From assembly GCA_964617825.1 (NCBI GenBank), contig CAZTWL010000009.1, forward strand, positions 11,011 through 75,010: a stretch of DNA of 64,000 nt, in the 5' to 3' direction. This document shows positions 1,736 through 61,311 of the stretch, in pieces. Source of the stretch: an uncultured Verrucomicrobiota bacterium. Its GTDB lineage: Bacteria > Verrucomicrobiota > Kiritimatiellia > JAAZAB01. The stretch's first letter is position 1, and each line of letters opens with the position of its first letter. The notes under the pieces are model-generated. The model saw only the letters and a program-made list of their open reading frames with translations. It did no database searches and was not told where the DNA came from. A program made the translations under genes and the position numbers.

Positions 1736-2428
1736 TCACGCTTTCAAGACCCCGGCCAAACGGAAGAAATTGAGCAGGATCGTCCGGCCGGCCATATAGG
1801 GCTTTGCCCAGCATTCGGCGTGGAATTGCATGCCATACAGCGGCTGCTCCCCATGCCGGATCATTTCATAGGCGCATTCGGAGCTCGTTGCCAGGTGGCT
1901 GAATCCGCGCGGCAGTTTTTTGATCTCGCAGCGGTGGTTTTCGCGAACGCGGATATGGCGGGTCAACCCCGCAAAAATCGGATCCGCGCGCAGAATTTTC
2001 ACTTCCGCAAAGGCATTCGCATAATAATAGCCCGGATGGCCCGCAAGGGCGCCCGTATCCGGCTCGCCGGGGCGGCATTTGCGCATCGGCTCATCCGGCA
2101 ACCGGCGGATCTTGCGCAAATCCCGGTTAAAGCAATGACCGATCAGCTGGTGCCCCTGGCAGATGCCCAGAATCGGTATTTCCGCCGTGTGCAGCAGGTC
2201 GTTAAGACCGTACAAATCCGATAACCGCACCGTTGGCCAGGGATCGGGGGAACCGGTGATAACAACGGCCTGGGGCTTGACGGCCCGCACCGTGGCCGGA
2301 CCGACTTCGGCATAGTGCATGATCAGCGCCGGCTGGCCGGACAGCTGCTCCACCCGGCATTTAATTCCGTGACCTCCGTCCTGCTGTTCATAAAGTTTCC
2401 TGTTCCGCATATTGACCACGAGAATCAT
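1736..2428 (-). CDS. class I glutamine amidotransferase-like hydrolase (GATase1, gamma-glutamyl hydrolase / PuuD-like)
   Basis: It carries an ILGICQGHQL nucleophile-elbow motif and a downstream His (FHAE). The start was chosen at ATG 2428, which has a GGAGGA Shine-Dalgarno 6 nt upstream. Confidence 0.6.
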   Translation of the reverse strand: MILVVNMRNRKLYEQQDGGHGIKCRVEQLSGQPALIMHYAEVGPATVRAVKPQAVVITGSPDPWPTVRLSDLYGLNDLLHTAEIPILGICQGHQLIGHCFNRDLRKIRRLPDEPMRKCRPGEPDTGALAGHPGYYYANAFAEVKILRADPIFAGLTRHIRVRENHRCEIKKLPRGFSHLATSSECAYEMIRHGEQPLYGMQFHAECWAKPYMAGRTILLNFFRLAGVLKA

Positions 2429-2542
2429 TCGCATTCCTCCATAATACATTGGCCTTGTGGACGGCAATTTGTTACACATGCGATGTCGCCTGTAAAGCAT
2501 TCTTATCGCCTTCGTTTGCTTGTTCGAAAGGAGACCCGCGGC

Positions 2543-5365
2543 ATGCCGACACTGATATTCACAAATAATACGCTTAAACTCGGGATCGGCGAGGACGCGA
2601 CCTTGCAGCTTTTTGCCGATTGCCGGAATAATCGGAATTATGCCGCGACCTCGCCACGCGCCGCATTTGCCGCCATCCGACAGGGTGACCGAACCATTCC
2701 GGCCAGCTCGGCCCGCCTGACAGACGAAGGATTGGCGTTGGCTTTCGCGCCCGCCGCAGCGCAGGTTGTGCTCCGTGTGCGCAGCGCGGGCCTCTATTTC
2801 GTGATCGAGGTGGCCGAGGTCCGGGGCGACGCGGTCGAAGAACTGGTTTTTATGGAGGCACCCCTGACGTTAAAGGGATCATTGGACGAACCTTTCGCCG
2901 CCTGCGCACTGGCCCTGAACCTGGCAACCAATGTGCCCGGGCTGCCCGGCCTGAGCCACGCATTGCATGCAACCTGCAGCCGGCGATTCGGGCTTGTCGG
3001 GGCCAGGGTTGCCCTGATCGGCTGTGCAACCCCGGAGCTGCGCGCCGTCATCCAGGCGGTGATGCGCGCGGAAAAAGACCTGCCGAAGTCCATGCTGGGC
3101 GGACCATGGGCCGAGGACGCTCCCATCAACCGGGGATCGTACCTCTTCAATTTCGGCGGAGTAACCGAAGCGACCGTGGGCGATTGGATCGGCCTGATGC
3201 GCACCCTGGGCTTCACCCAGCTCGATTTCCACGGCGGAAAATCCTTCCATTTTGGCGACTTGGAACCGGACCCGGAAATGTACCCGCGCGGCCTGGATAG
3301 TCTCAAGGCGGTCAATGACCGCCTGCACGAAGCCGGCATGATCTCCGGACTGCACACGTATGCATTTTTCATGGACAAACGCAGCAAATGGGTCACGCCC
3401 AAGCCGCACCCCGAATTGGGTAAAGACGCGACCTTCACGCTGGCCGCGCCGCTGACGGCGGATGCCGCCGCCGTGCCGGTGCTGGAATCGACCGCGGCGA
3501 TGTCCACCGTAACCGGTTTCGGCACGCGCAACAGTGTTACCCTCCAGATCGACGACGAATTGATAACCTATGCCGCCATCAAGAAGGACCCGCCCTGGGC
3601 CTTCACCCAGTGCACGCGCGGCGCGTGCGGGACGCAGGCAAGGCCACACGCCGCCGGAACCAAGGCGCATCACATCAAGGAATGCTTCGGCCTGTTCACT
3701 CCCGAGGGCGACTCGGCGCTGCTGACCGAAGTCGCGGCGCGCACGGCGGAAGTGTTCAACTACTGCGGCTTCGACATGATCTATCTCGACGCTCTGGATG
3801 GCGAAGACATCCTGGGAGGCGCCAAACTGGGCTGGCATTACGGCTCAAAATTCGTGTTCGAACTCAACAAGCGCCTGCGTAAGCCCGCCTTGATGGAGAT
3901 GAGCACTTTTCATCATCACCTTTGGTACGTTCGCTCGCGCATGGGCGCATGGGACCATCCTACGCGCGCGCACAAGCAATTCATCGACAACCACGTCGCA
4001 GCCAACCGGGATAACCAACGCATCTTTCTGCCCAGCGTGCTGGGCTGGTGGGCCCTGCTCTTCTGGTCGGGACCGAACACGGAACCCACCTACGCGGACG
4101 ACATCGAATACCTGTGCGCCAAGTCGCTCGCCACGGACAGCACCCTGGCCTTGATGGGGGTCGACCCCGACAGCTATGCGCACAAACCCGGCGCAAAACG
4201 CCTGGGGGATATCTTCAAGCGCTACGAACGGTTGCGGCACTCTCATGCGGTGCCCGAGACGATCAAGACCAGGTTGCGCGAACCGGGTTGCGACTTCACG
4301 CTGGTCGAATCCGGCGATGGTCATTGGGCGTTCCGCCCGGTCAACTATGCCAAGCACAAGATCGCGGACCTTGATGGCGGCGACCGGCGCTGGACGGTCG
4401 TCAACCAGTATGTTTCGCAGCCGCTGCGCTTGCGCATCGAGGCTTTATTGTCGGCGCAACCGTACGACAGCATCAACTCCGTCCTGACCGGATTCGATAC
4501 CAGGGAAATCCGCAGCGCACGGGGCGTCACCGCGCAATGCGCACATCCATCCGACAAACCGGCCCTGCTTTCGTTCCGCGCCCGCAACGAGAGCGCGGCC
4601 GTGGAAAAGGCCTGGTGCTGTCTGCGCCGGCTATTCGATCCGCCGCTTAACATGCTGGAGGAAAGCGCACGCGTCGCGGTGCAGGGCCAGGCGCAATTGG
4701 AGGGCATGCGCCAGACAGTTGGCATGGGACTGTGGGTGTCGGGCGACGGCAATGGCCAGACCATAAATATCCGGCTGCGCAGCCCAAAGTCCGTATCGAA
4801 CGCCATCGCCGACCATTACGTAACCGTGGACTTCAAAGGCTGGCGCTACTTCGAGTTGATCGAGCCCGAAGCGGAACGAGTCCGCAACTACTTCTGGCCG
4901 AAAGAGTCCGAAGATCCAGCCTGGGTCGTTAGCGATGAAGAGTTTGCGTTTCGAGGCGGCTATGGATACCCGGTCTACCGGGAGTCGGCGGATTTTTCGC
5001 GGATCGCGTCCGTCCGTCTCTGGTATCATCATCTTCCCGCCGGCCGGGAAGTCAACTGCCTGTTCAAGCCGGTCAAGATACTGCCGCTGGTCAGCATCGC
5101 ATTGCGCCACCCGACGGTGCGCATCGGCAACGACGAGATCGTTTTCCCAGTGGAACTCGAAAGCGGACAATACCTGGAATTCGACGGGAGCGCCCCAGCC
5201 ATCGTCTACGGACGGGACGGCGCCCCCCTCGCCCGGGTGGCGCCGCAAGGCACGGTTCCCACGCTTCGGGCAGGACAAAACGTCATTGGCTTCGCATGCC
5301 AACCATCGCTACCGGTAACGCCGCGCGCCAGGGTAACCGTCATCAGCATGGGCGCCAATTTATAG
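2543..5365 (+). CDS. large (940 aa) uncharacterised protein, putative glycoside-hydrolase-like; paralog of the gene at 58811..60994
   Basis: Start ATG 2543 is preceded by AAAGGAGA. Several conserved blocks (VTPKPHPELGKD..FTLAAPL, FNYCGFDMIYLDALDGE) are shared with the protein at 58811..60994. Confidence 0.6.
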   Translation: MPTLIFTNNTLKLGIGEDATLQLFADCRNNRNYAATSPRAAFAAIRQGDRTIPASSARLTDEGLALAFAPAAAQVVLRVRSAGLYFVIEVAEVRGDAVEELVFMEAPLTLKGSLDEPFAACALALNLATNVPGLPGLSHALHATCSRRFGLVGARVALIGCATPELRAVIQAVMRAEKDLPKSMLGGPWAEDAPINRGSYLFNFGGVTEATVGDWIGLMRTLGFTQLDFHGGKSFHFGDLEPDPEMYPRGLDSLKAVNDRLHEAGMISGLHTYAFFMDKRSKWVTPKPHPELGKDATFTLAAPLTADAAAVPVLESTAAMSTVTGFGTRNSVTLQIDDELITYAAIKKDPPWAFTQCTRGACGTQARPHAAGTKAHHIKECFGLFTPEGDSALLTEVAARTAEVFNYCGFDMIYLDALDGEDILGGAKLGWHYGSKFVFELNKRLRKPALMEMSTFHHHLWYVRSRMGAWDHPTRAHKQFIDNHVAANRDNQRIFLPSVLGWWALLFWSGPNTEPTYADDIEYLCAKSLATDSTLALMGVDPDSYAHKPGAKRLGDIFKRYERLRHSHAVPETIKTRLREPGCDFTLVESGDGHWAFRPVNYAKHKIADLDGGDRRWTVVNQYVSQPLRLRIEALLSAQPYDSINSVLTGFDTREIRSARGVTAQCAHPSDKPALLSFRARNESAAVEKAWCCLRRLFDPPLNMLEESARVAVQGQAQLEGMRQTVGMGLWVSGDGNGQTINIRLRSPKSVSNAIADHYVTVDFKGWRYFELIEPEAERVRNYFWPKESEDPAWVVSDEEFAFRGGYGYPVYRESADFSRIASVRLWYHHLPAGREVNCLFKPVKILPLVSIALRHPTVRIGNDEIVFPVELESGQYLEFDGSAPAIVYGRDGAPLARVAPQGTVPTLRAGQNVIGFACQPSLPVTPRARVTVISMGANL

Positions 5366-9716: not shown

Positions 9717-12401
9717 TTACATATCCTCGCAAAGCCGCCAGTATACTATCGGCGTCAGGTATCTCCCGCCGAAATTCTCCAGGTGCTGGGTAGCGCCGCC
9801 ATGATAATGGATATACCACTCCGCAAGCGTGCGATCATACACCGCCAGGTCGGAAATGCCATCGCCGTCGAAATCGCCGGAAACAGGGATGCAGTCCGCG
9901 CCGCCCCAGGAGTAGCCATTCATCAACCACGCCCCCGCGAGCGAATAGATGTTCCAGGCCGCATTCACGCGATTATAGAGCGCGAGATCCGATGCGCCAT
10001 CGCCATCGTAATCGCCCGGCACGGGCACCATGTTCGGGCCGCCGAAATTACCGCGATCGATCCGGCCATTCTTGGCATACAGGATCAACCAATCGCCCGT
10101 GGTCTCCGAGTACAGGGCCAAGTCCGAACTACCGTCGCCATCGTAATCGCCCGGCACGGGGAAAAAGCCCGGGGCGCCGAAATTATCTCCGCACAACAGC
10201 CAGGTGCAGTCACGCGTCGATAGAATGTACCAGGCCGCAGTATCCGGATCATAGAGCGCACAATCCGTAAATCCATCGCCATTGTAATCGCCGGGCACCG
10301 GAATAAACGATCCTCCCCCGAAGCCGGTCATACCGGCAACCGTATTTGCTTCCAGATAAAAAACATGCCAGGTGGCGGCTTGCGGATCATAAACCAGGGC
10401 ATCCGACTTGCCGCCGCCGTTATAATCGCCCGGCACCGGCCGGCAGGCGCCGGACCCGAAATTCGCGCCATTGGCCAGCCAGTCCTGCGACAGGGATGAC
10501 CAGATATACCAGTTGCCATTGAGGATGTCATATAACGCAAAATCGCCGCAATTATCTCCGTCGTAATCGTTGTTCAATCCCAGCACGCGCAGATTCGAGG
10601 CCGCCGTCGGCATCGCGCTCCCCACCCCCACCGCCGACCAGGCCGCCATCACGCTTGTCGTCCAGGCAAGATTAAGATCCTGAGCAGCGGAAAGCCAGGC
10701 AGTCCGTGCGGCCCGGTAATCGGTATTCGGCCCGCAATAGACGGTCAATGCCCGATAAGCCAGTTGGCGCACATTCTCGATGCCGATGCCCGTGACGCTG
10801 TAATCGATGCCATCGTTGTTGCCGCTGCCGCCCTCCACGAGCAAGTAGGCCATGTGATTCTGCACGCCGCAATTATAATGCACACCGCCATTATCGTCGC
10901 CGCCATAAAACCAATTCATCCCGTGATATTTGCTCGGATCGGCAAACCGCCCGGGATTACGCATGTCGCGCAAAGCCACCGTATTCGGATAAGTGCAATC
11001 TTCGCCGATCAACCAGTCGGCCTTGCCTGGCGTGCGCCCGGGATAACTGGCGCGCCCGTCATCCTGGCTGGCAAATTCCACAAACGTGCCGAATATATCG
11101 GAGAAGGACTCATCCAATGCCCCTGATTCGCCTTGGTAGATCAGCCCCGCCGTATGCTCCGTGACGGCATGCGTAAACTCGTGGCCGCATACGTCCAGCG
11201 TGGCCAGTTCGGCAAATAACGCGCCCGAATAAAAGAAAAATGCCTGGTCAGCCGTCGACCAGTAAGCATTGTCCGTGCCGCCCCACATATGCACATTGGC
11301 GCGGGCCTGCGCGCCCTGGGCATCGTAACCGCTGCGCCCATGCACGTTGAGGTAATAGTTGCCGATCAAGTTGAAATTATAGGCCGCCGAAATTTCCGTT
11401 GGATCCGAAGCGACCCAGGAATTAGAACCGCGAAAGGCCACCGATCCGCTGTCGGGATAGGAAGACGTATTGTCGCTGTTATAAATCAACCAAGCGGCAT
11501 TGGAAAGCCAGTAAAGGCCGCTGGCGAACAAACCCGGCAACATCACGCGCGCACCGCCTTCCCCATACAGCATATTCCCGTTGATGGCAACATCACTCAT
11601 GGACTTTGAGGCCGACACCGTGCGGATGTCATTATATCGATTCAAGACAACCCCGGATTGCGCGTCAACCCAGTAGCGCCAGCAACCGGCGCCTGCTCCG
11701 GCATCGGTATAAGTCAGGGTCATTTCGTAGGCCAACGCCGGCACAACGCCCCGCGCATAAATCACTATTTCCGGGGTTCCCCAGAGATGACCGACCGGCA
11801 GTCCCATGGCTGCCAAGTCGTTCCCGGCCGCAGTCAGCGCCGCCAAAGGGCCAATGTGCGGCGTCGAATCCACCGACAGGTTCGGGATATAACGTCCGTT
11901 GACCTGGTAGGGCTGTCCGCGGCGATTGAAATGCACAATCAATTCGCCGCCGACCACGCGCCGACCGCCTGCCATCTGGCGCAAGCGCGCATGATGAAAA
12001 CCCTGATCATCGGCATCCACGCGATAGGATTCAAATTCTTGCGCGGCATTATTGATCCGGTAGGCCGCCGCGACCCGCTCCATGACGGCGACAGCCGCCC
12101 CGCGATAGTCACCCCGAAGGCCGGTAACCGGCCCCGTCATGCCCGCAAGCCCGGCGCCGCGCAGCGAGGCTGGCGCTCCGGTTTGTTCATCCCACTGGAC
12201 CGCAACAGCGGGCAGCGCTTTCAGCGCCGCCACTTGAGCGGCCTTTGCCGCGCGAACCGCTTCCGGGGTGGCCTGCGCAGCTGACGCAGCCGCAACGGCG
12301 TTCCTTGGGCGCAGTGCATCATCCGCACGCAAAGCCCATCCGGGCAAAACTCCGGCCAGCGCACCGAGTGCCAGGCCAACGATTATCGGAAAGGATTTCA
12401 T
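9717..12401 (-). CDS. secreted M4 (thermolysin-like) zinc metallopeptidase precursor with five C-terminal FG-GAP repeats
   Basis: A signal peptide starts at ATG 12401. The N-terminal region resembles an FTP/PepSY-like propeptide. The active-site motifs are HEFTH ... GALDESFSD (M4 HExxH plus ExxxD). The C-terminus carries five VPGDYDGDGxSDLALY calcium-loop FG-GAP repeats. Confidence 0.85.
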   Translation of the reverse strand: MKSFPIIVGLALGALAGVLPGWALRADDALRPRNAVAAASAAQATPEAVRAAKAAQVAALKALPAVAVQWDEQTGAPASLRGAGLAGMTGPVTGLRGDYRGAAVAVMERVAAAYRINNAAQEFESYRVDADDQGFHHARLRQMAGGRRVVGGELIVHFNRRGQPYQVNGRYIPNLSVDSTPHIGPLAALTAAGNDLAAMGLPVGHLWGTPEIVIYARGVVPALAYEMTLTYTDAGAGAGCWRYWVDAQSGVVLNRYNDIRTVSASKSMSDVAINGNMLYGEGGARVMLPGLFASGLYWLSNAAWLIYNSDNTSSYPDSGSVAFRGSNSWVASDPTEISAAYNFNLIGNYYLNVHGRSGYDAQGAQARANVHMWGGTDNAYWSTADQAFFFYSGALFAELATLDVCGHEFTHAVTEHTAGLIYQGESGALDESFSDIFGTFVEFASQDDGRASYPGRTPGKADWLIGEDCTYPNTVALRDMRNPGRFADPSKYHGMNWFYGGDDNGGVHYNCGVQNHMAYLLVEGGSGNNDGIDYSVTGIGIENVRQLAYRALTVYCGPNTDYRAARTAWLSAAQDLNLAWTTSVMAAWSAVGVGSAMPTAASNLRVLGLNNDYDGDNCGDFALYDILNGNWYIWSSLSQDWLANGANFGSGACRPVPGDYNGGGKSDALVYDPQAATWHVFYLEANTVAGMTGFGGGSFIPVPGDYNGDGFTDCALYDPDTAAWYILSTRDCTWLLCGDNFGAPGFFPVPGDYDGDGSSDLALYSETTGDWLILYAKNGRIDRGNFGGPNMVPVPGDYDGDGASDLALYNRVNAAWNIYSLAGAWLMNGYSWGGADCIPVSGDFDGDGISDLAVYDRTLAEWYIHYHGGATQHLENFGGRYLTPIVYWRLCEDM

Positions 12402-12502
12402 TGGTCTGATTGTCGCAAACCGCATTCCGTTGCACAAGGCTTTTTGAGGTTTACCGCATAGGGGAAGGTGCTCCGGACGCCTATTTTCCCCATTGTTTCC
12501 CC

Positions 12503-14496: not shown

Positions 14497-15927
14497 ATGA
14501 AAGTGAAAGGTTGCTCGGCGGTGGGATTGGTGGTTGGGGCATTGATCTTCGCGCAGGGCGCCATCGGCCAGACGGCTCAAGGGCCACTGCGTCCAGAAGG
14601 AATAACACTGGATGACGCAAGTACGCCGCCGCCGGTCAAGGTAATGATCGGACGGAACGATGTGCCGCAATTTAAAGTTGCTCCGCCGGCCAATTTCGCC
14701 AAGCAGCCTAAAACCGCGACGTTCACGATCAGTTACCTGAACGCAGGCGAAGTGAACTATTACGGCGACGTTTGCATCGGCTGGCCGGAGGATGCCAAGG
14801 CGGCCTTTACCTATGCCGCCAATATCTGGGGAACCTTGCTGAATTCGTCCGTGCCGATCAAGATCAGCGCCTGTTGGGCCAACATGGGCACCGACGGACT
14901 TTTGGGGCATGGCGGCGCGCGCACCTATTACAGGGATTTTGCCGGCGCCCCGCTGGGCGCCACGTTTTATCCCGTGGCGATCGCCAACGCCATCTATGGC
15001 AGCGACCTGAATGGCGGCACGGAAGAAATTGTGATCGCCTATAACGCCCAGTTCACCGACTGGTATTTCGGCACGGATACCTGCCCGGCGGACAAGATTG
15101 ACTTCGCCCAAGTAATCATGCATGAGATGTGCCATGGTCTCGGATTCATCGGCAGCATGTCAGTTTCCAGCAACTTGGGTTATTGGGGCATATCCGATGG
15201 CTCGGCAAATTATCCGGTTATTTACGATCGGTATACCGAGGGCGGGGACGGCACCAAATTGCTGGCCTACAGCAGCGGCACGGCCGCGTTGTATAACCAA
15301 TTGGTGAGCGGCAGCGTCTATTTCAACGGCCCCAACGCCAATGCCGGCAACGGCGGCGCCAAGGTTCCGCTGTATGCGCCGAGCACCTGGTCGGATGGAT
15401 CGAGCTACGCGCATCTGGCTCAAAGCTTCGTGGGCACCGTCAACGGCATGATGACGTATGCGGCCGATTATGGTTCGACAATCCATGATCCCGGTCCGGT
15501 CACCAAGGGCATCTTGGCCGACAATGGCTGGAACGCGGCAAACACTATCGGACCGGTCATCTATGCCAATGGCGTAACAAACGCGATCACGGTTGCCTAC
15601 CCCACTCCCGTGAACATCAACGTGGCCATGAATGCCGGCGGGTATGCGGGCACAAGCGTTGACTGGTGGGTGGTTGTCAACGCCCGCGGCGGCGGCTGGT
15701 ATTGCATGAACAGCGCCATGCAGTTGCTCGAATTCACCGACTGGACCGCGTGCCAGCCGATTCTCCAGTCCCCGCTGTTCACCATCGGGTCCACGCCCGT
15801 CATGAGCGGTCTTGTCATTGCTCCCGGTGTTTATGACTTCTGGTTCGCCATAACTTATCCGATGACCGGGAACATAACCACCAGCCAAGTGACGTTGTTC
15901 GACAAAGTTACGGTCACCGTTCAGTAA
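14497..15927 (+). CDS. secreted putative zinc metalloprotease paralog (HEMCHGLGF) whose C-terminal domain is shared with the SLT protein at 52013
   Basis: Signal peptide. The first ~340 aa are paralogous to the gene at 12561. The FG-GAP repeats are replaced by a ~118-aa domain (YPTPVNINVAMNAGGYAG..DWWVV...TVTVQ). Confidence 0.8.
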   Translation: MKVKGCSAVGLVVGALIFAQGAIGQTAQGPLRPEGITLDDASTPPPVKVMIGRNDVPQFKVAPPANFAKQPKTATFTISYLNAGEVNYYGDVCIGWPEDAKAAFTYAANIWGTLLNSSVPIKISACWANMGTDGLLGHGGARTYYRDFAGAPLGATFYPVAIANAIYGSDLNGGTEEIVIAYNAQFTDWYFGTDTCPADKIDFAQVIMHEMCHGLGFIGSMSVSSNLGYWGISDGSANYPVIYDRYTEGGDGTKLLAYSSGTAALYNQLVSGSVYFNGPNANAGNGGAKVPLYAPSTWSDGSSYAHLAQSFVGTVNGMMTYAADYGSTIHDPGPVTKGILADNGWNAANTIGPVIYANGVTNAITVAYPTPVNINVAMNAGGYAGTSVDWWVVVNARGGGWYCMNSAMQLLEFTDWTACQPILQSPLFTIGSTPVMSGLVIAPGVYDFWFAITYPMTGNITTSQVTLFDKVTVTVQ

Positions 15928-15996: not shown

Positions 15997-16704
15997 TTAA
16001 GCGGGGCAATTACCCTTGGGGGGTTGCCCCGCTCTTTTTTCCAGCCAATCTATAATCCGCGCCGCCACCTTGAGCTTGGTCATAAGCGGCAAAACCCGCA
16101 CACAACCGTCCGCATCCAGCAACGTCACCCGGTTGGTATCCACTTCAAAACCGGCATCGCGGCGACTGACGTCATTGGCCACAATCAGGTCCAGGTTCTT
16201 CTCCGTCAATTTGCGGCGCGCTTCCCCGACCAGCCGCTGCGTCTCCGCGGCAAATCCAACAAATACACGCCGCCCCTTTTTGGATCGCAAAGTCTTGAGA
16301 ATGTCCGGCGTCGGTTCCAGATGCAACACCCCGGACGCCGTTGCCTTCTTGATTTTTTGAGGAGCGACGCGGCGCGGACGCCAGTCGGCCACGGCGGCGG
16401 CCATGATGAGCGCATCGCATCGGCTCAGATGGCGCCGAACGGCCGACAGCATCTCGGCCGCCGTCGTCACCGCCACAAGGACGACCTTTGGCGGGGGGCG
16501 CAGCGCCACCGGCCCGGAAATCAAGGTGACGGCATGGCCCCGCCGCGCAGCCACGCGCGCCAAGGCATATCCCATCTTGCCGCTGGACCGGTTGCTTATA
16601 AAACGCACCGGATCGATCGCTTCACGCGTGGGACCGGCTGTAATTAAAATGCGCATGACGGAAAAGAATGGTTGATAGGCAACGATTTTTATGCCAGGCA
16701 ACAC
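15997..16704 (-). CDS. coaB: phosphopantothenate--cysteine ligase (CoaB domain, encoded as a separate gene)
   Basis: RILITAGPTREAIDPVRFISNRSSGKMG is the CoaB signature. It starts at GTG 16704, or at ATG 16656. It overlaps the coaC 3' end by 16 nt in a different frame. Confidence 0.8.
   Translation of the reverse strand: MLPGIKIVAYQPFFSVMRILITAGPTREAIDPVRFISNRSSGKMGYALARVAARRGHAVTLISGPVALRPPPKVVLVAVTTAAEMLSAVRRHLSRCDALIMAAAVADWRPRRVAPQKIKKATASGVLHLEPTPDILKTLRSKKGRRVFVGFAAETQRLVGEARRKLTEKNLDLIVANDVSRRDAGFEVDTNRVTLLDADGCVRVLPLMTKLKVAARIIDWLEKRAGQPPKGNCPA
16001..16040 (+). terminator. intrinsic terminator (GCGGGGCAA...TTGCCCCGC stem followed by TCTTTTTT) downstream of the gene at 14497..15927
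   Basis: A GC-rich 9-bp stem is followed by a T-run on the + strand. It overlaps the last codons of coaB on the minus strand. Confidence 0.55.
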
Positions 16705-17234
16705 TGTGCCACGGCAGCGACAATCTTATCCAATGCGGCCAGGCGTCCACGCCCCGCATAGCCGCAGGCCAAATCGCCCTGCTCCACATCCAAGATCACG
16801 GCGCCGCGCTCCTTCAGAACGCGCGCATTTTCCCTGGTCGCCGGATGCGCCCACATTTTGTCGTTCATCGCCGGCGCCACCACCAGCGGGGCCTGGCAGG
16901 CCAAAGCGGTCGCGCTCAAGGCATCGTCCGCCAAACCGTGCGCCAGCTTGGCCATGACATTGGCCGTGCAGGGCGCCAGCACAAGCACATCGGCCCAATC
17001 GGCCAGCGCAATATGCGTCGGCCGCCACGCCTCGGTCTCCTGAAACATGTCGACCACCACGGGGCGGCGGGTCAAAGCGCGAAAAGTCAATTCGCCGACA
17101 AACCGGGTGGCGGCCTGGGTCATAATGACCGACACCTCCCAGTTCTTTTTGATCATCAGACGGGTCAATTCGGCCGCCTTGTAGGCGGCAATCGAACCGG
17201 TCACGCCCAAAAGAATATGTTTGCTTTCGGCCAT
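16689..17234 (-). CDS. coaC: phosphopantothenoylcysteine decarboxylase flavoprotein (CoaC domain, separate gene)
   Basis: ILLGVTGSIAAYKA is the FMN-binding motif, and a PAMN motif is present. 181 aa, with its own stop codon. Confidence 0.85.
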   Translation of the reverse strand: MAESKHILLGVTGSIAAYKAAELTRLMIKKNWEVSVIMTQAATRFVGELTFRALTRRPVVVDMFQETEAWRPTHIALADWADVLVLAPCTANVMAKLAHGLADDALSATALACQAPLVVAPAMNDKMWAHPATRENARVLKERGAVILDVEQGDLACGYAGRGRLAALDKIVAAVAQCCLA

Positions 17235-18889: not shown

Positions 18890-20018
18890 TCAGGTATGGT
18901 TTGCGGGCTTGCTGCGCCTGAATTTCAAATAGGCTTCGATGAATTTATCCAGATCGCCTTCCAGCACGCCCATGACATTGCCGACTTCCACATCCGTGCG
19001 ATGATCCTTGGCCATGGTATAAGGCTGAAGCACATAGGACCGGATCTGGCGGCCCCAGGCGATTTCGCCCTTCTCGCCGTAGAACTTTTCCATTTCCTGC
19101 CGTTTTTCGTCCTGCATCATTTCATACACCCGCGCGCGCAGGAGTTTCATGGCCTTATTGCGATTGGCGTGCTGCGATCGCTCCGATTGACAGGAAACCA
19201 CGATGCCCGTCGCCAGATGCGTCAGGCGAATGGCCGAATCGGTCTTATTGACATGTTGCCCGCCGGCGCCGCCGGCGCGATAGGTATCCACCCGCAGATC
19301 GGCCTCCGTAATTTCAACCTCAACGTCATCATCCAATTCCGCTACGACATCCAGCGAGGCAAACGAGGTATGCCGCCGTTTATTGGAATCGAAAGGACTG
19401 ATGCGCACCAGGCGGTGGACGCCGCGCTCGGCCGAAAGATAGCCATAGGCATATTCGCCCTCGACCAGCAGCGTCGCGCTCTTCACGCCCGCCTCCTCGC
19501 CGGCGAGCATGTCCAATACCGTCACCTGGAATCCGTGCTTTTCACAATAGCGCCGGTACATGCGCATAAGCATGCCAGCCCAGTCGCAAGCCTCCGTGCC
19601 GCCCGCGCCGGCGTGCAGGTTGATGTAGGCATTATGCCGGTCAAGTTTGCCGTTAAAAAGCGCTTCGATTTCAAGCTTGCGGAAGGCCGCCTCGAATTGC
19701 TCGATTTCAGCGGTAATCTCAACCAGCGCTTGGGCGCGATGCGCGGGATCGGCTTCGGTCTCAGCCAGTTCCACCAGGATACGGACATCGTCCACCCGGC
19801 TGGAAACAGCCTTGAAAGGATTCAGCACGGCACGCAGGGCATTGGCCTGGTCAATCACCGCTTTGGCGGCATTCTGGTCGTTCCAAAAGTCGGGCGCCGC
19901 CATTTTCACTTCGAGTGCGGCCAGCGCGGTTTCACGGTTGGCGACGTCAAAGATAACCCCGCATCTCAGCGAGGCGGGCAACCATGGGCGCAATTTTATC
20001 TTTAAGATCCTCGAGCAT
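18890..20018 (-). CDS. prfB: peptide chain release factor 2, produced by a programmed +1 frameshift
   Basis: ATG 20018 opens a short frame, MLEDLKDKIAPMVARLAEMRGYL, that stops at 19949..19947 inside CTT TGA C. A +1 shift continues into the long frame, which carries the SPF tripeptide and GGQ motifs. Confidence 0.85.
19946..19952 (-). other. RF2 autoregulatory +1 frameshift site CUU UGA C with an upstream SD-like CGGGGU
   Basis: Minus-strand sequence ...ATGCGGGGTTATCTTTGACG... It matches the E. coli prfB site AGGGGGUAUCUUUGAC. Confidence 0.8.
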
Positions 20019-20194
20019 AGTGCTTCCTTTCGGCATTGAATGGCGCCAGAATGCCTAAAAAAGGCATTGAACGCAAGCGGGAATCCGGCAACGGCGGCAA
20101 ACTTTGACCGGTGTTCTAACCATTGAATAACAGGGAATACACTCAGCCAACGCATCCTTGCCCCGCGTTGCGCGTGACCAGGCCATCGTTCGGC

Positions 20195-20951: not shown

Positions 20952-23396
20952 TCAATCCTTCAAACTAATGTTGAACGGAAGCAACGACCAATCCGAATCG
21001 ATCTCCAGATTGTATTCGATGGCATATTGACGCGCGTCACGGCCTGGGACGGGCGACAATTCCGCGCACAAGAAGTTATAGAACTCGTATTTCACCTGCC
21101 GCTTGGTCGCCAGGCACAACGGCACATGGCCAGTACGCTTACGGCGCACAAGCTTGTGGAGGGGAATCCAGGGCGTCCAGGTTCCCGGCACAATATAATC
21201 CTTTTTGGCCGGCGCGGCCTTGAGCAGCCCCTGCCGTCCGAGATACCCCAGAACAACTGGCTTGCCTCTGGCCGGGCGTTCCTGCAGCTGGATCGTGTTA
21301 TCGAAGAGATCCCACCAGATCGATTCCTCGTAATTGTTGGGAAAGTTTGGAATGATAGCCCGCATGTAGCAGGTATCCCAAACCGGCGGCTGGAAACGCC
21401 GCCGACGGATCGCTTCAATCCGCGCCGCATATTCTTTTTCATCCGCAGGGAAGGAGGCATAGGGACGTGCAAAAAATGCCAGCCGCTTTTGCCATTCCGC
21501 CGCCTGGTTGACAAACAGCCAGCCCGCCAGACCATAGCCTTCCATTTCGCGCGCCAACGGCGCCGTGGAAGGCACGGCAGCGAATGTATTGCGCTCGTAA
21601 TTGCTGTCGAGCGCATAGGCGCGGCGGCCGGGGCGGATTTGCAGCCGGTCCCAATCCACCGCCAGGCTGACCCGCCGTTTTGTCGCGGCATAATTTGCCG
21701 CGATCAACAGGACATTGTTATCCCGATCCGCCATCAGACAGGCGCCAGTTTTGTCGGAATCGGTTTTGAAAATCCGCTCGCTGCCCTGGGAGGAATGGAC
21801 GCGGATATCCCGCTTGCCGTCCAGCAGTTCCCACAACCGCCACAAGGGCCGTTGAAACGTGATGGTTGCAGGCATATTGGGATGCGCCAGCGAACTGGAC
21901 GGGAACTGCGTACCCAGGATCACAAACGGGCTCTGCGCGGTGCTCGCCAGGTAAGGCAGCGCGGCCTTGGTCCGATAAGACGGGAACGCCGCCGTCCACA
22001 GGTAGGAGGGCGCAACGGACAATCCGCTGAAATAGGCATGCAGCCTCTTGTCCCGAATCATCTGCCCCTTCTCCTGTTCGCCGGCCAAGTAACCATCGAC
22101 GGTAGTGTGCCCCACTGCAGAGAAGAACGAACCCGAATGACTTATGTGCACGCCGTCCGGCCCCAACTGCTCGCGCAGACGGCGCGACTGGTAATAATAA
22201 TCGCGGAACTGGATCCGGCCCCCGGGAGCCATTTCATCGGCCGTCTGGATGCAATACGGCGTTCCGAAATCCATATACAAGCCATCCCAATTCTTACGCA
22301 ACAGCGGCAGAATCGAACCGGCCAGGTCTTCCTTTACGCCGTCTTCATTGCCGCGGACATAGAAAGCCGCCCGCATCCCATGCCGGTGAATCGAGGCCAA
22401 CACTTTATTGAATACCGAACGGTCGTAAATAAATTCGCTGTTCTTGGCGTCCAGCCGCCAGTTTTCATGCAGCATGAAAAGGTTGGCGCCCTCGGCGGTC
22501 GCCTGGCGAATTATTTTTTCAGTGGGATACCTGTCAAAATTGTCCAGATAGTGAAAGATCCTGAAGGGCGTATGCCGGCGTTCCACCGGAAAACGGCGCA
22601 AGGCCCAGCCCCAGATGTTGCCCCAATAGTAGGCGCGTCCCGGTTTGGCCCGGGGACTTTTCTGGAAATTCCAGCACAGATTGGCGCGTGTGCCCTTCCA
22701 GGAAACCACCGTCTCGGTATTGTGAAAATCGGCGGTCAGGGAATTGAACGATTCCACGAAATATTCCAAATGCCGGTCGCGCCGCTCCTCCCGCCCGAAA
22801 TCGAAGCTCACGAACGGCAAAATTCGCCCGGCAAAACGCCGTTCGCCGCGGGCCGCCAGATTGCGCTCGTAACCTCCCAGCGACTGGATTAAATCGGCAG
22901 TATTGGTTTTGGGACAATCCCAGTAGGCCCAGTCGGCCGATTGCTGCCCGTCCAGCGCCAGGGAGGGTTCGAGGACAAAGTCGCGGATCACGCCCGGATG
23001 CAGGTTCTCCGTAAAGAAAAACGTTTTCACAAACACGACGCCGTCCGCATAGATCTCGTAATGCAGTGCCAAGCGATATCCCTCCAGGATTTTTCCGGCA
23101 TCATCGCACCAGGAGATGTTGTCGAAGACCACGCGCACGGAATCGCGCGCACGAATCAGGGCGGGCTTGAAATCCTTCAAGGGGGCCGGGTGGATCCGGC
23201 GCTTGCCGCCCAAGGTCGCTCCGAGCCAGGGCGCCTGCCGGTCGCACAACGGATGGGCCTCCCCCTGGAACCCGATCCGGCTGGGAAATCCCGCCGCAGC
23301 GCGCGTAAGGCGATAGGCAAACAGTTCATTGGAGATATCCAGGACGCCCGCAGCCTTGTCGAGATTAACGTTGATCATAGCCATAATCCTTTCCAA
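20952..23396 (-). CDS. large uncharacterised putative glycoside-hydrolase-like TIM-barrel protein; paralogous core with the gene at 31354..32715
   Basis: Shared blocks include ANLFMLHENWRLD / VQLIQLHEEWNDA and NWDGLYMDFGTPY / GFDGIYNDWGYDG. Confidence 0.6.
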   Translation of the reverse strand: MERIMAMINVNLDKAAGVLDISNELFAYRLTRAAAGFPSRIGFQGEAHPLCDRQAPWLGATLGGKRRIHPAPLKDFKPALIRARDSVRVVFDNISWCDDAGKILEGYRLALHYEIYADGVVFVKTFFFTENLHPGVIRDFVLEPSLALDGQQSADWAYWDCPKTNTADLIQSLGGYERNLAARGERRFAGRILPFVSFDFGREERRDRHLEYFVESFNSLTADFHNTETVVSWKGTRANLCWNFQKSPRAKPGRAYYWGNIWGWALRRFPVERRHTPFRIFHYLDNFDRYPTEKIIRQATAEGANLFMLHENWRLDAKNSEFIYDRSVFNKVLASIHRHGMRAAFYVRGNEDGVKEDLAGSILPLLRKNWDGLYMDFGTPYCIQTADEMAPGGRIQFRDYYYQSRRLREQLGPDGVHISHSGSFFSAVGHTTVDGYLAGEQEKGQMIRDKRLHAYFSGLSVAPSYLWTAAFPSYRTKAALPYLASTAQSPFVILGTQFPSSSLAHPNMPATITFQRPLWRLWELLDGKRDIRVHSSQGSERIFKTDSDKTGACLMADRDNNVLLIAANYAATKRRVSLAVDWDRLQIRPGRRAYALDSNYERNTFAAVPSTAPLAREMEGYGLAGWLFVNQAAEWQKRLAFFARPYASFPADEKEYAARIEAIRRRRFQPPVWDTCYMRAIIPNFPNNYEESIWWDLFDNTIQLQERPARGKPVVLGYLGRQGLLKAAPAKKDYIVPGTWTPWIPLHKLVRRKRTGHVPLCLATKRQVKYEFYNFLCAELSPVPGRDARQYAIEYNLEIDSDWSLLPFNISLKD

Positions 23397-31353: not shown

Positions 31354-32715
31354 TCAGGCAATGCGTTCCAGTAAGCGGATATCCCCGGCGGGAATGCCGA
31401 TGACATTCACAGTTTCACCAGTTTCCCGATTGCGCCAAGCATGAGCAAGCGGCGCCGTGATCGGCGCATCGCCAAGATTGGAAATGACCAGATACTGCCG
31501 CTCATTGGTAAACATGGAGACCAGGGTGTCCTTGGGCAAAGGCTGCCGAAACAGCCCCGTATCCTCCAGGCAGATGTGAACGATGCTGCCCTCAACCACC
31601 ATCGGGCGATAAAGCGCCAGGAACATGCTCCAGCGGTCGAGATAGGCGGGATCGTCAGGAATGCTCGACCAGTGACTGTAAACATAGGGGCCGTTGGGAT
31701 GGGCGCGAGTATAATCGCGGATCTTCAGCAAGTGGGCATAGGAGGAACTTTTTTTATTGAATTTCACTCCCGGCGCATCGGCGCCTTCACCCTTCCAGGG
31801 ACGTCCGTGAGGCAGCAGCGGAAATTGCATGAACGGAATTGACAGGGCAAAAAACATTCGCGGCATCGATTCGTTAAAAAAGGTCTTGTCGGGGCAAGGC
31901 ACAATATACAGCGGCGCATCCCGGTAAATCATCAGGGTTTTCGGATCGCGCACGGCTTCGCCGATCCAAAGATAATCGTAGACCCGCTGGCGGTACGCTC
32001 CGAACGTGCTGTCGTCATGCAGTTTGCAGATGCCGCCGCGGGCATGAATACCCTCGTAGAGCAGGCAGAGCAGGTCCTCGATCTCCGGGTCATAGGGCAA
32101 ATTCGTCCGATCGAAAACCTCGCCACGATCCCGGGCAGTCTGCATGGCCAGATTCAGGCCGTCGTAGCCCCAGTCATTGTAAATACCGTCGAAACCGTAA
32201 GTATCCATGACCTCGAAGGTTTTGCGCAAAATGAATTCCCGCCATGCGGCGCTGCCCGCTGATCCCTTGCGATAATACTTGTACGACCCGCTCCAGGAGG
32301 CATCCGTCAGGGAAAATTCCGGCCGGTAGGCAGGGTCGCCCGGCTGCAAATAGCCGGAGGATACATAGGGGATGACCTTGATGCCGCAACCATGGCACAG
32401 ATCCACAAATTTATGCAGGCCCTCGGGATCTGGCGTGCTGTATTTGTCCGCCCCGTGGAGGCGCATGGCATCGTTCCATTCCTCGTGCAATTGGATGAGC
32501 TGCACACCGCGCTGGGCGAGGCTTGCAATCAGCCGATGATCGTATTCCGTCGGCATGGCCGAAACACGCGCAGGCTCATCGCCCAGGTTATAGGTTACCT
32601 GCCCCGGCAAATAATTGCGCACCCGTTCGGTGCGGTAACAGCCGGCGGCATATTTTTGGGCAAAGCGGATGTTCTCCAATCTTGTCTGCTGCGCTGCGAG
32701 TGAATATTTTTCCAT
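31354..32715 (-). CDS. putative glycoside-hydrolase-like TIM-barrel protein (uncharacterised family); paralog of the core of the gene at 20952..23396
   Basis: ATG 32715 with an AAGGAG upstream. The conserved HEEWND and DGIYNDWGYDG blocks are present. Confidence 0.65.
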   Translation of the reverse strand: MEKYSLAAQQTRLENIRFAQKYAAGCYRTERVRNYLPGQVTYNLGDEPARVSAMPTEYDHRLIASLAQRGVQLIQLHEEWNDAMRLHGADKYSTPDPEGLHKFVDLCHGCGIKVIPYVSSGYLQPGDPAYRPEFSLTDASWSGSYKYYRKGSAGSAAWREFILRKTFEVMDTYGFDGIYNDWGYDGLNLAMQTARDRGEVFDRTNLPYDPEIEDLLCLLYEGIHARGGICKLHDDSTFGAYRQRVYDYLWIGEAVRDPKTLMIYRDAPLYIVPCPDKTFFNESMPRMFFALSIPFMQFPLLPHGRPWKGEGADAPGVKFNKKSSSYAHLLKIRDYTRAHPNGPYVYSHWSSIPDDPAYLDRWSMFLALYRPMVVEGSIVHICLEDTGLFRQPLPKDTLVSMFTNERQYLVISNLGDAPITAPLAHAWRNRETGETVNVIGIPAGDIRLLERIA

Positions 32716-32851
32716 TTTCCGGCACACTCCTTGGTAACAAACGTTCAAGGTCGCGCGAAGACCGGCACCGGCCGGCCCCATCCGATCGACATTATAATTA
32801 TCTCGGGAAACCCGCCCGCGGACGATTTCTTTTTTGCCTCCCGGCCAAGAC

Positions 32852-38246: not shown

Positions 38247-38330
38247 TTAAGACCGGCTGTTACCTGAAGACCTGCTTGGCAACGGCCGCTCACCGATGGG
38301 GAAAAACCAGAGCAAGGCAAAAAGGACTTT

Positions 38331-39566
38331 TTACCGGCCGTCCGGTTTACTCCTGCATGCGGCTTCATACACGGCCCGAACGGATACGCCGGCGCTCTCG
38401 GCCACGCGTCGGCAATCGTCATATTCCGGCGATGTGGTGATATCGGCGCCCTGCCAACGGCCGATTTTTACACGAACGCTGCCAAAAACCGTTTCCACGG
38501 TTTCATGGCGACGCTCCAATATGGTGCGCTGGACGGGATATTCCCGGATGCCGAAAGTCGTGCTTTCGCGGAAGATCAAATCCCGAATGGCCGAACGCTG
38601 GTCCGGCCGACACAAAACCGTCAGTAGAATACCGGGCCGCTGTTTCTTCATTTGCACGGGCGTCATGAACGCATCCAGGGCGCCGGCGGCCAACAAGCGC
38701 TGCATCAGGTTGCCCATCAATTCCGGCGGCAGGTCATCCAGGTTGCATTCTAACACCAGGCAGATGTCCGTTGCAGGACCGGCATCCGCCGCTCGAAGGG
38801 GATCCACGGCAACCGATTCCATCAGGATGGCGCGCAGGACATTAGGTCGACCGCTCAGGGTCCGGTGTCCGAATCCCTGCCCGACCTTCAGAATGCGGCT
38901 GCCCTCGGGGAAATGGTCGAGTGTTTTCCAGGTTGTCAGCAGCGCCGCACCCGTGGGAGTGACTAATTCGAATGTCTCGTCGACCGACGTCACAGGGAAA
39001 CCTTTAAGCAATTCCACAGTTGCCGGGGCCGGCAAAGGCAACAGCCCGTGCGCGCAGGCAACCGTTCCATGGCCCAACGGCAGCGGACCAAACGACACGC
39101 CGGTAACTCCAAGCGACTCCAAGCCCAGGCAGGCGCCGACAATGTCAATAATGGAATCCACGGCGCCCACCTCGTGGAAATGCACCTGTTCGGGAGCAAT
39201 CCCATGCACCCGCGCTTCCGCTTCCGCCAAGCGCCGGAATACTCGAAGACTGGCCGCCTGCACGGAAGCCGGGAAGCTGCTGCCCTCGATCAAGGCCCGG
39301 ATTTCGTTTAATCCGCGATGGGGGGTATGCGCATGTTCGACGTGGCCATGCGCATGGATTGGCGCCTGCACATCGACCCGCGTGCCGTGCAAGCCGTGTT
39401 CGCTGGCAGATGCCGCTTCAATCGTAAATTGCCCGATTGACAAACCGGCCAGTTGGCGCTGCACATCCGCGCGATTGACCCCGAGGTCAAAAATGGCCGC
39501 CAGGATCATGTCGCCGCTGGCCCCGCCCACACTGTCGAAATGCAGATGCTTCATAATTCGCATCAT
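38331..39566 (-). CDS. larC: nickel-pincer nucleotide cofactor nickel-insertion protein LarC (DUF111)
   Basis: MKHLHFDSVGGASGDM N-terminal signature, with a C-terminal CTP-hydrolysing domain. The true start may be ATG 39554. Confidence 0.8.
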   Translation of the reverse strand: MMRIMKHLHFDSVGGASGDMILAAIFDLGVNRADVQRQLAGLSIGQFTIEAASASEHGLHGTRVDVQAPIHAHGHVEHAHTPHRGLNEIRALIEGSSFPASVQAASLRVFRRLAEAEARVHGIAPEQVHFHEVGAVDSIIDIVGACLGLESLGVTGVSFGPLPLGHGTVACAHGLLPLPAPATVELLKGFPVTSVDETFELVTPTGAALLTTWKTLDHFPEGSRILKVGQGFGHRTLSGRPNVLRAILMESVAVDPLRAADAGPATDICLVLECNLDDLPPELMGNLMQRLLAAGALDAFMTPVQMKKQRPGILLTVLCRPDQRSAIRDLIFRESTTFGIREYPVQRTILERRHETVETVFGSVRVKIGRWQGADITTSPEYDDCRRVAESAGVSVRAVYEAACRSKPDGR

Positions 39567-39698
39567 TCAATAAACTGTTGAAAAAACTCGTTGGTGTCCT
39601 GCCAAGGCGATAGATCTCGGGAGTGAATCGAAAGATCTCGCGACTACGATCGGGAAGTCATGTTCGGACGACCATTGACCAACGCCCATTTTTGTCCC

Positions 39699-52012: not shown

Positions 52013-53269
52013 ATGATGAGCAGAAAAGCAATCAAAACATCGACACCCCACGCCGACCGGATCCTCCAAGGTCTGCGCCGCTCCTGCCTATGCCGACTGG
52101 CCGCATTCCTCATACCCATGGCTCTCTTTTGCACCTCCGGACAAAGCGCAATTGCGACAGCGGAAGCGGCCGATGAAATCGCCGGCGAGTTGTTGCCCTC
52201 TGACAATTACAAGCATGCGGAGTGTTGGCTTAAACACATGAGCGGCTATGCCGGCCCATTTACGGGCGCCAATCCGTCAACCTCGAAAATCTGCGACGCC
52301 ATCCGCGCTCTGTCCGCCCAGTACAAAGTACCGATCGAAATTATCGGCGCCGTTTGTTTCCAGGAAAGCAGTCTATACCAGTACGGCGCAGATGGGTTTA
52401 TTGTCCATAATCTGGGCGAATGCATATCGTTGTATTATGGCGCCTCTGGCGGTCCGCCGGGACTGGGACTCATGCAGCTGACCGGGACAACGGCCACCAG
52501 CACATTCGATGTGAATCGGCTTATTACGGACTGGCGTTATAACCTGGAAGCGGGGGTCTACGTGTTAAGACATGAATATGACACCTCTTTGGCTTACTAC
52601 CCGCCGGAGATGCAAACCATAACGATTGCAAATTGGAATGTGCTGGAGAATTGGCGTTACGCACTGGCGCGTTACAATAGCTACCAAGATCCGGAGAACC
52701 CCTACGTAGCCGCCGTGTGCAGGCATATCGCCTCCCCTCCCGCGCAACTATCGGGCCTTTTTACCGGAGCGACACTGACCGAGCCGCAAGACGTCATACC
52801 GGAGTTCATCTATGGGAATGGTTATGCCGTCAAGCCTGAGGGCGTCTGGCTATATGCTAATGGCATTGCGTATTACGGGACCGCGCATACCGGAACGATT
52901 GCCGCCAATCCGACAATCAAAGCCAATGGCGTGGAAGGCCAAATTGCCGTCAATTATCCCGCCCCGCTATCCATCACCGTGGCAATGAATGCCGGCGATT
53001 ATGCCGGCCTGAAGGGCGACTGGTGGGTCGTCGCTTGTGCCGGATATACATGGTATTACATGGATGGCGTGAACGGGTGGACGCAGGAGGGCGCTTGGCG
53101 TCCGGCATTCCAAGGCGGATTTTGCAATCTACCCACCACGGAAGTGCTGAACGTATCTAATTTGGGAAAAGGTTCGTATACCTTCTATTTTGCGGTTGAT
53201 TTTATTATGGATGGCATTTTGAACATGGATGCAATTTTATTTAATTCGGTGAATGTCATCGTGCAGTAA
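52013..53269 (+). CDS. secreted lytic-transglycosylase (SLT) domain protein with a C-terminal domain shared with the protease paralog at 14497
   Basis: SLT motifs FQESSLYQY and GLMQL. The last ~108 aa (YPAPLSITVAMNAGDYAG..DWWVV...VIVQ) match the C-terminus of the 14497..15927 protein. Confidence 0.7.
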   Translation: MMSRKAIKTSTPHADRILQGLRRSCLCRLAAFLIPMALFCTSGQSAIATAEAADEIAGELLPSDNYKHAECWLKHMSGYAGPFTGANPSTSKICDAIRALSAQYKVPIEIIGAVCFQESSLYQYGADGFIVHNLGECISLYYGASGGPPGLGLMQLTGTTATSTFDVNRLITDWRYNLEAGVYVLRHEYDTSLAYYPPEMQTITIANWNVLENWRYALARYNSYQDPENPYVAAVCRHIASPPAQLSGLFTGATLTEPQDVIPEFIYGNGYAVKPEGVWLYANGIAYYGTAHTGTIAANPTIKANGVEGQIAVNYPAPLSITVAMNAGDYAGLKGDWWVVACAGYTWYYMDGVNGWTQEGAWRPAFQGGFCNLPTTEVLNVSNLGKGSYTFYFAVDFIMDGILNMDAILFNSVNVIVQ

Positions 53270-60994: not shown

Positions 60995-61311
60995 GGTTAG
61001 CTCCGGAATAAAAAAGCATTTGCAAAACAACGGCGCTTTGTTCCCGCCGTCACCGGCGCGGCTAACAAGCGCTGACTTTTCCTGGCATCGAATGCCGGGA
61101 GAAGGCACCGGTCGAGCCGAAGGCGATTTGCAACAACGCCAGCATTTCCTAATCTTCAGCGCTCAGTGACGCACCTAAATCCCATCGACCGTCACCGCCT
61201 GCCTTACGCAATAACATTGTGACGGAATGTAACAAGGTGCGCCAGAAAACGCCAGCGCAAAACCGATGGCAAACGGCAATGAGGGTTGGTCGCCAAGGGA
61301 ATAGCGCACCC

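Follow-up and report, generated by a model that had tools for sequence, protein, structure and literature searches.

A portable immunoglobulin-like C-terminal module of exported proteins in Kiritimatiellia-type bacteria and its possible role in surface targeting or tethering

A 64,000-nt stretch of contig CAZTWL010000009.1, from an uncultured bacterium of the Verrucomicrobiota class Kiritimatiellia ("the window" hereafter), encodes two secreted proteins—a metalloprotease and a probable lytic transglycosylase-like protein—that end in the same module of ~125 amino acids (aa). The family to which this module belongs is large and well defined, is absent from Pfam and NCBIfam, and constitutes a new domain family of a familiar type. 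We suggest, with a confidence that stops a little short of even, that it serves Kiritimatiellia-type bacteria as a portable device for targeting Sec-exported proteins to the cell surface or tethering them there. An earlier note, made from the sequence alone, had proposed a portable targeting, anchoring or binding domain at this position, and we assess that proposal below against its rivals.

The two C-termini are homologous, as the earlier note had claimed. When the full-length proteins are compared, the sole significant BLASTP alignment (E = 2e-18, 36% identity) is confined to their C-termini (aa 316–476 of the metalloprotease and aa 283–418 of the other protein), and in tblastn searches of the whole window each isolated domain retrieves the other copy (E = 6e-20 and 2e-17; 39–40% identity over 118–124 aa), whereas the next best match, at E ≥ 1.9, yields no third copy in the window. 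Because of these values, a chance or compositional match can be set aside. Both proteins terminate in V.V.VQ, again as noted earlier. The module comprises the last ~125–131 aa of each protein, the envelope of the family hidden Markov model (HMM) opening at aa 346–351 of the metalloprotease (nt 15532–15547) and at aa 295–296 of the second protein (nt ~52898). Here the earlier delineation needs correction: its starts (15568 and 52943) lie ~10 aa downstream of the true ones and so exclude a conserved GPxI(K)ANG motif as well as the first beta-strand (Table 1). In the alignment the copies fall into different subtypes, with a long (copy 1) or a short (copy 2) loop before the conserved P76, so they are not the product of a recent intragenomic duplication.

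A word-indexed protein search with a single domain retrieved one relative, and exhaustive HMMER searching was needed to bring out the family. Run against 1.84 billion representative proteins (50%-identity cluster level), a three-sequence profile recovered 1,983 representatives at E ≤ 1e-3, 1,034 at E ≤ 1e-10 and 91 at E ≤ 1e-30. In the numbering of the window metalloprotease module, N13, D44, G99 and F105 are invariant, while P8, I10, A12, W45, W46, W56, W65, P76, L82, Y101, M111, G113, V126 and V128 are nearly so. The family shows a strong bias toward terminal placement: the domain ends no more than three residues from the C-terminus in 137 of 151 proteins (the best 150 matches plus P0001) and in 101 of the 105 full-length matches of a second, more distant set (i.e., 238 of 256, or ~93%, when both sets are pooled). 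The last residue in the 151-protein set is Q in 82 cases, E in 25, P in 13 and R in 11, and a stop codon follows the module directly, with zero extra residues, in nearly all stop-to-stop open reading frames (ORFs) of 45 genomic loci. Seven of the 151 proteins bear two to four copies in tandem, the last of which is terminal in most; the internal copies end in V.V.(M/V)L, the final Q being replaced by L, in contrast to the terminal V.V.VQ.

The earlier note had held that a match to a known, functionally unrelated globular family lacking such a terminal bias would speak against its proposal, and no such match emerged from Pfam, NCBIfam, PHROGs or PDB sequences. Specifically, scans of both window copies and 38 diverse family members against Pfam-A (2025) and NCBIfam (2026), with the 38 sequences run at E ≤ 1, gave scattered chance-level matches at most. 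Among the latter are those to Choline_bind_1 in four of the 38 sequences (best E = 0.0024), and in the same Pfam scan the PPC, PKD, DUF11, CARDB and Big models found nothing beyond chance level. A PHROGs search with the module and a scan of viral contigs were both empty, by which a phage immunoglobulin (Ig)-like decoration domain was ruled out. A profile search of the PDB returned marginal matches to antibody VH domains (E = 0.011), with VesB also at chance level. An AlphaFold2 model of copy 1, built from a three-sequence alignment, is confident and all-beta, with 10 strands arranged as a two-sheet sandwich (pLDDT, the predicted local distance difference test, 87; pTM, the predicted template modelling score, 0.81). 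Its structural neighbours are generic, namely immunoglobulin V-set domains and RbmA-type FnIII sandwiches, with top matches at 10–19% identity; unlike these, the module has no conserved disulfide, and the similarity is one of fold alone that implies no functional relationship. As modelled, then, the module is an autonomous Ig-like beta-sandwich without a specific known relative. Our literature search found no description of the module or of any Kiritimatiellia sorting system.

The module is also portable, as the earlier note had surmised from two proteins. Ninety full-length carriers match at least 81 Pfam families, including fn3 (14 carriers), Ig_J_second (14), BspA-type LRR_5 (11) and Calx-beta (9), as well as beta-helix, Kelch, FG-GAP_2, peptidases M28 and C1, CHAP, lectin-like and GH85_C. 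A hydrophobic, signal-like N-terminus is present in 90 of 106 full-length carriers and in both window proteins, from which we infer that the carriers are Sec-exported. Short linkers enriched in A, G, S, V, T and P precede the module, and the junctions hold no conserved cleavage motif besides the module's own GPxIxANG start.

The hosts form a restricted lineage, and single genomes hold many copies. Our host scan covered one genome per species with a seven-sequence alignment and two peptide patterns only, such that its counts are lower bounds. Of 43 genome loci, 42 come from metagenome-assembled genomes (MAGs) labelled Kiritimatiellia, Verrucomicrobiota or "Lentisphaerae" and one from a MAG labelled Minisyncoccia; MAGs of the former kind also supply the closest homologues of the window protease (60–81% identity), by which the window is assigned to this clade, and more distant family members bear the names of Planctomycetota and Deltaproteobacteria MAGs. 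The module recurs at C-termini within one genome, being found in at least 13 ORFs of MAG JACPGM01, at least eight of CAYYWX01 and at least six of JAHIMN01, and JACPGM01 has arrays of three to four consecutive same-strand carrier genes (L019 1..6067 and L029 1..5618). An 80-aa fragment in one of these arrays (L029 1127..1366) may be a pseudogene or frameshift remnant. The contig from the Minisyncoccia-labelled MAG (candidate phyla radiation) encodes a 163-aa protein of signal peptide plus module (L040 2893..3384), for which binning error and horizontal transfer are alternative origins.

The main rival to a targeting or tethering role is that of a general ligand-binding accessory domain—similar to a carbohydrate-binding module (CBM) or an adhesin domain—that directs its carrier to an external substrate (e.g., polysaccharide, the envelope of another cell or matrix material), with the C-terminal position a by-product of domain addition. 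We regard this as unlikely on balance, though well worth serious weight. An Ig-like fold with many conserved aromatics (DWW, WYY, FWF) fits it, as do the tandem, N-terminal and stand-alone copies, and several cell-wall hydrolase passengers (SLT-like, CHAP, M23) would gain from substrate targeting. Yet 93% of the examined members end within three residues of the domain and have a preferred terminal residue, a placement that seems stricter than would be expected of accessory domains such as CBM, PKD and fn3; at the junctions that were read, fn3 domains sit upstream of the module in the same proteins. Glycoside hydrolase passengers are scarce (GH85_C alone, in two of 90 carriers), many passengers are non-enzymatic repeats with no need for substrate binding (LRR, Calx-beta, Kelch), and none of the CBM or lectin families was matched in the Pfam and NCBIfam scans of the 38 domain sequences. 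The passenger range is typical of surface-sorting cargo rather than of a CBM attached to carbohydrate-active enzymes. In being portable, usually terminal and fused to many unrelated secreted proteins, with tandem copies and occasional copies at the other terminus, the module resembles dockerin, SLH, choline-binding and other cell-wall-binding repeats, but it differs from them in its Ig-like sandwich fold and in the chance level of its Choline_bind_1 matches. Peptidoglycan binding, which the earlier note had listed among the options, finds no support.

Evidence of a different kind comes from the window metalloprotease and its neighbours. The protease label of the earlier note is supported, as the protein has an HExxH zinc motif with an adjacent LGF (HEMCHGLGF, aa 209–217; HEMCH at 15121–15135 and HGLGF at 15133–15147) and matches NF038122 (metallo_LGF) at E = 9.5e-14, although its 52.1 bits remain below the curated cutoff of 80. 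Because all homologues tested likewise score 47–67 bits, these proteases appear to form a sister group related to NF038122 rather than members of it; a PDB sequence search with the metalloprotease passenger gave no match. A sister paralogue upstream shares 78% aa identity with this protein across the N-terminal 346 aa and, just as the earlier note had observed, carries FG-GAP repeats in the position of the module (PF01839, E = 3.6e-9; also PF13517). DNA identity between the paralogues (80% over 995 nt, gene nt 41–1035) ceases at 15531, one base ahead of the module, and because it ends right at the module border we regard the difference as a clean module swap. The FG-GAP module of the paralogue is in turn related to that of an M4 protease on the opposite strand (35% identity, E = 4e-27), both having an FG-GAP-like repeat pattern, GDxDGD...D...WYI. 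As judged from these alignments, the FG-GAP repeats are a second portable C-terminal module here, and C-terminal modules are swapped among neighbouring secreted proteases. In other genomes, FG-GAP-ended genes (with lipase, FBA/DUF1573 or GH130-like passengers) adjoin carrier genes in seven loci. These organisms therefore equip their secreted enzymes with two or more C-terminal modules that can stand in for one another. The FG-GAP propeller is a ligand-binding fold (as in integrin-type propellers), and its presence in the module slot of the paralogue is a point in favor of the ligand-binding rival.

The exchange of endings extends well beyond the window. The catalytic part has 169 homologues at E ≤ 1e-10. 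Among 120 homologues whose endings were compared, 24 bear the Ig-like module, two (P0365 and P0375) bear TIGR04183 sorting domains of the type IX secretion system (T9SS) above cutoff, with P0375 named a T9SS substrate by JGI, one (P0378) has an ending that by eye is similar to TIGR04183 domains, and some end in FG-GAP repeats. Within the last ~10 residues of a further 47 there is a short motif, [YF][LI]P[LIV][VIL]x[KR], for which NCBIfam has no model; the few source-named homologues with this motif are labelled Anaerolineae or Kouleothrix, and it may represent an undescribed C-terminal signal of Chloroflexota. Smaller groups end in DPTTIPPK (five), VEVFYxP (four) or KKTTFK (three), several homologues have DUF11, PKD, PPC, CARDB or Big_9 sandwiches ahead of short endings, and the remainder have other, mostly unclassified endings. 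The same passenger thus comes with endings that vary from lineage to lineage and include at least one established sorting signal; no other indirect evidence speaks as strongly for a targeting role of the Kiritimatiellia module.

This position in protease homologues also brings in the known sandwich domains PPC (PF04151), PKD (PF00801/PF18911), DUF11 (PF01345) and CARDB (PF07705), with which the module shares its fold class; its hairpin, G.Y.F.F.VD...G, resembles the PKD-type signature. Unlike these domains, the module is unmatched by their models and far more strictly terminal, and its passenger range is wider than that of PPC. A PPC-like role, in which a pre-peptidase C-terminal domain serves as an intramolecular chaperone, inhibitor or secretion aid and is cleaved at maturation, would accord with the beta-sandwich fold, with the C-terminal position on a secreted protease in the window and with two homologues (P0315 and P0335) that bear PF04151 at the same place. 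We nonetheless consider it highly improbable, given that peptidases make up a minority of the carriers, which otherwise include fn3, LRR_5, Calx-beta, beta-helix and Kelch proteins, that stand-alone and tandem forms occur and that the module has no match to PF04151.

Among known systems, one close parallel is the type A C-terminal domain (CTD) of T9SS substrates (TIGR04183/PF18962, Por_Secre_tail). Like it, the module is a beta-sandwich at the extreme C-terminus of signal-peptide-bearing, Sec-exported proteins, has cargo that is very varied and of matching kinds (proteases, LRR, fn3, adhesin-like repeats), occurs in many copies per genome, is lineage-restricted and occupies the same position in metalloprotease homologues. 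A local resemblance of 16 columns (LN..GL..G.Y.F) to the penultimate strand of T9SS CTDs adds to the likeness, and a highly divergent true T9SS CTD, which would imply a T9SS-like system in these Verrucomicrobiota, thus deserves mention. It is, however, the most improbable of the accounts weighed here. Neither window domain nor any of the 38 family members matches TIGR04183 or PF18962 at E ≤ 1, while genuine CTDs of this kind on homologous proteases reach 44 bits; hhalign assigns the local resemblance a probability of 7%, using a small, three-sequence T9SS CTD alignment; and the module, at ~125 aa and 10 strands, is larger than T9SS CTDs, which have seven strands in ~70–90 aa (~80 aa). Occasional tandem, N-terminal, internal and stand-alone copies also set it apart, as do its hosts of the Planctomycetes–Verrucomicrobia–Chlamydiae (PVC) group, since to our knowledge T9SS is confined to Bacteroidota and the Fibrobacteres–Chlorobi–Bacteroidetes (FCB) group and none is known in Kiritimatiellia-type bacteria. 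A search of the literature for a connection between Kiritimatiellia and T9SS yielded nothing of relevance, and no SprA, PorV, PorU or other T9SS machinery gene was seen in the window. We therefore reject T9SS CTD membership, although the two may be functionally analogous. A PEP-CTERM/exosortase signal is likewise rejected, as the module ends in a beta-strand (V.V.VQ) without a hydrophobic helix or basic tail, and so is an LPXTG/sortase signal, the motif, transmembrane helix and basic tail being absent from the window proteins and the family members listed. The earlier note, which did not recognize any of these three signals, was right in this respect.

The data show the homology, fold class, portability, terminal bias, copy number and lineage restriction of the module and its replacement by known or apparent sorting signals in homologues; export, surface targeting and a common partner are what we infer. 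In the mechanism we envisage, the N-terminal signal peptide would carry the protein across the inner membrane, after which the folded C-terminal module would direct or tether its passenger—a protease, a cell-wall hydrolase, or an adhesin-like protein with LRR, fn3 or Calx-beta domains—to a partner that the carriers share and that lies at the outer membrane or outside it. Candidates for this partner are a surface receptor, a surface polymer and a component of the export route, and a wide variety of proteins would in this way be exposed on the cell surface or kept there. The module would thus act as a lineage-specific equivalent of T9SS CTDs, dockerins or SLH-type anchors, while belonging detectably to none of these. 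Because tandem, N-terminal and stand-alone copies occur, a folded docking or tethering module is somewhat likelier than a cleaved translocation tag.

Several observations weigh against surface targeting or tethering. The ~7% of members that are not terminal would be atypical for a strict secretion tag and fit a general ligand-binding module equally well; a few proteins have the order signal peptide, domain and then PBP, Lcl_C or M23; and small proteins consist of signal peptide and domain alone. The PKD, DUF11 and PPC sandwiches found at the same position of the protease in other lineages (also a point for the ligand-binding rival) indicate that this slot is not reserved for sorting signals. 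Furthermore, ORF clustering of the flanks of 45 loci revealed no recurrent neighbour except the FG-GAP-ended genes (the largest neighbour-ORF cluster was rejected as a conserved neighbour, as it consists of antisense shadow ORFs of module-coding and passenger regions), and no partner, receptor, processing enzyme or secretion component is recognizable in the window. Nor did the surroundings of two family members on long contigs (P0200 and P0280) contain candidate machinery.

A more specific version of surface targeting, to which we give rather little credence, is that the module is the recognition signal of a new outer-membrane translocation or surface-attachment pathway of Kiritimatiellia and related PVC bacteria, or a variant of this with FG-GAP docking. 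Such a pathway would be an independently evolved functional analogue of the T9SS CTD system, with its own translocon or attachment enzyme. In the more speculative docking variant, the Ig-like module might bind the FG-GAP propeller that alternates with it on neighbouring secreted enzymes, in an integrin-like manner, and these enzymes would be assembled into surface complexes.

The second carrier in the window is less securely assigned than the metalloprotease. The earlier label of an SLT lytic transglycosylase stands as far as motifs go, for QESS (52361–52372, aa 117), GLMQ (52466–52477, aa 152) and RYNSY (52670–52684, aa 220) follow in order, and ES, GLMQ and (A)YN are the signature motifs of family 1 lytic transglycosylases; but the PF01464 (SLT) profile match (E = 0.0036, 17.3 bits) lies below the gathering cutoff of 21.3. 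Searches of PDB, NCBIfam and PHROGs with this passenger gave no match, neither the roughly 380 retrieved proteins nor the related loci include a homologue of it, and a single-sequence AlphaFold2 model (pLDDT 32) was too poor for use.

Table 1. Positions of the two module copies, their carriers and other features in the 64-kb window.
Feature	Position (nt)	Strand	Basis and remarks
Secreted metalloprotease gene with C-terminal module, 476 aa	14497..15927	+	ORF; exact sequence in protein collection (P0264, NCBI)
Probable Sec signal peptide MKVKGCSAVGLVVGALIFAQGAIG	14497..14568	+	By eye: basic N-terminus, hydrophobic core, small residues
Catalytic passenger region	14581..15531	+	Paralogue homology stops at 15531
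Ig-like module, copy 1	15532..15924	+	aa 346–476; family HMM E = 9.5e-48; 0 residues to stop
Copy 1 motifs	15550–15573; 15658–15675; 15838–15870; 15907–15924	+	GPVIYANG; VDWWVV; FWFAITYPMTG; terminal VTVTVQ
SLT-like (lytic transglycosylase-like) exported protein with same module, 418 aa	52013..53269	+	ORF
Ig-like module, copy 2	52898..53266	+	aa 296–418; family HMM E = 4.4e-50; 0 residues to stop
Copy 2 motifs	52907–52930; 53015–53032; 53183–53215; 53249–53266	+	NPTIKANG; GDWWVV; FYFAVDFIMDG; terminal VNVIVQ
Sister metalloprotease paralogue, 588 aa	12561..14327	+	Same catalytic part; C-terminal FG-GAP module ~13599–14324 instead
M4 thermolysin-like protease, directly upstream	9717..12437	-	Peptidase_M4, M4_C, FTP and FG-GAP matches; FG-GAP module 9717..10589
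CoaB-like ORF	15997..16704	-	By eye
CoaC-like ORF	16689..17234	-	By eye; 16-nt overlap with CoaB-like ORF, different frames
Release-factor-2-like ORF	18890..20155	-	421 aa as listed
Large ORF without Pfam match	2315..5365	+	
Large ORF without Pfam match	20952..23396	-	
Large ORF without Pfam match	58811..61108	-	
Large ORF without Pfam match	31354..32781	-	
Large ORF without Pfam match	38296..39573	+	

The remainder of the window is ordinary chromosome, with uvrB, nadA, proB and proA-like genes, a Ser/Thr kinase and several glycoside-hydrolase-like genes. Five large ORFs (425–1016 aa; Table 1) have a gene-like codon-position GC bias and no Pfam match at E ≤ 1e-4. The CoaB- and CoaC-like ORFs look like the two halves of coaBC (15997..17234), which is either naturally split here or interrupted by a frameshift. 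The release-factor-2-like ORF has a long N-terminal extension; prfB is commonly expressed with a programmed +1 frameshift.

In sediments, groundwater, digesters and guts, Kiritimatiellia and their relatives among the Verrucomicrobiota abound as degraders of polysaccharides, and we are aware of no description of the route by which their proteins reach the cell surface. Many of the proteases, cell-wall hydrolases and adhesin-like proteins that Kiritimatiellia-type bacteria export carry the module described here as their C-terminus. Defining it as a domain would allow thousands of proteins now listed as "hypothetical" to be annotated better, would supply a computable marker of the surface or secreted proteome of these bacteria and would give phylogenetic profiling a handle on the machinery or receptor that goes with the module. 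Should a dedicated pathway exist, it would be a new sorting system outside Bacteroidota; should the module instead serve in binding, ligand recognition would gain a new scaffold.

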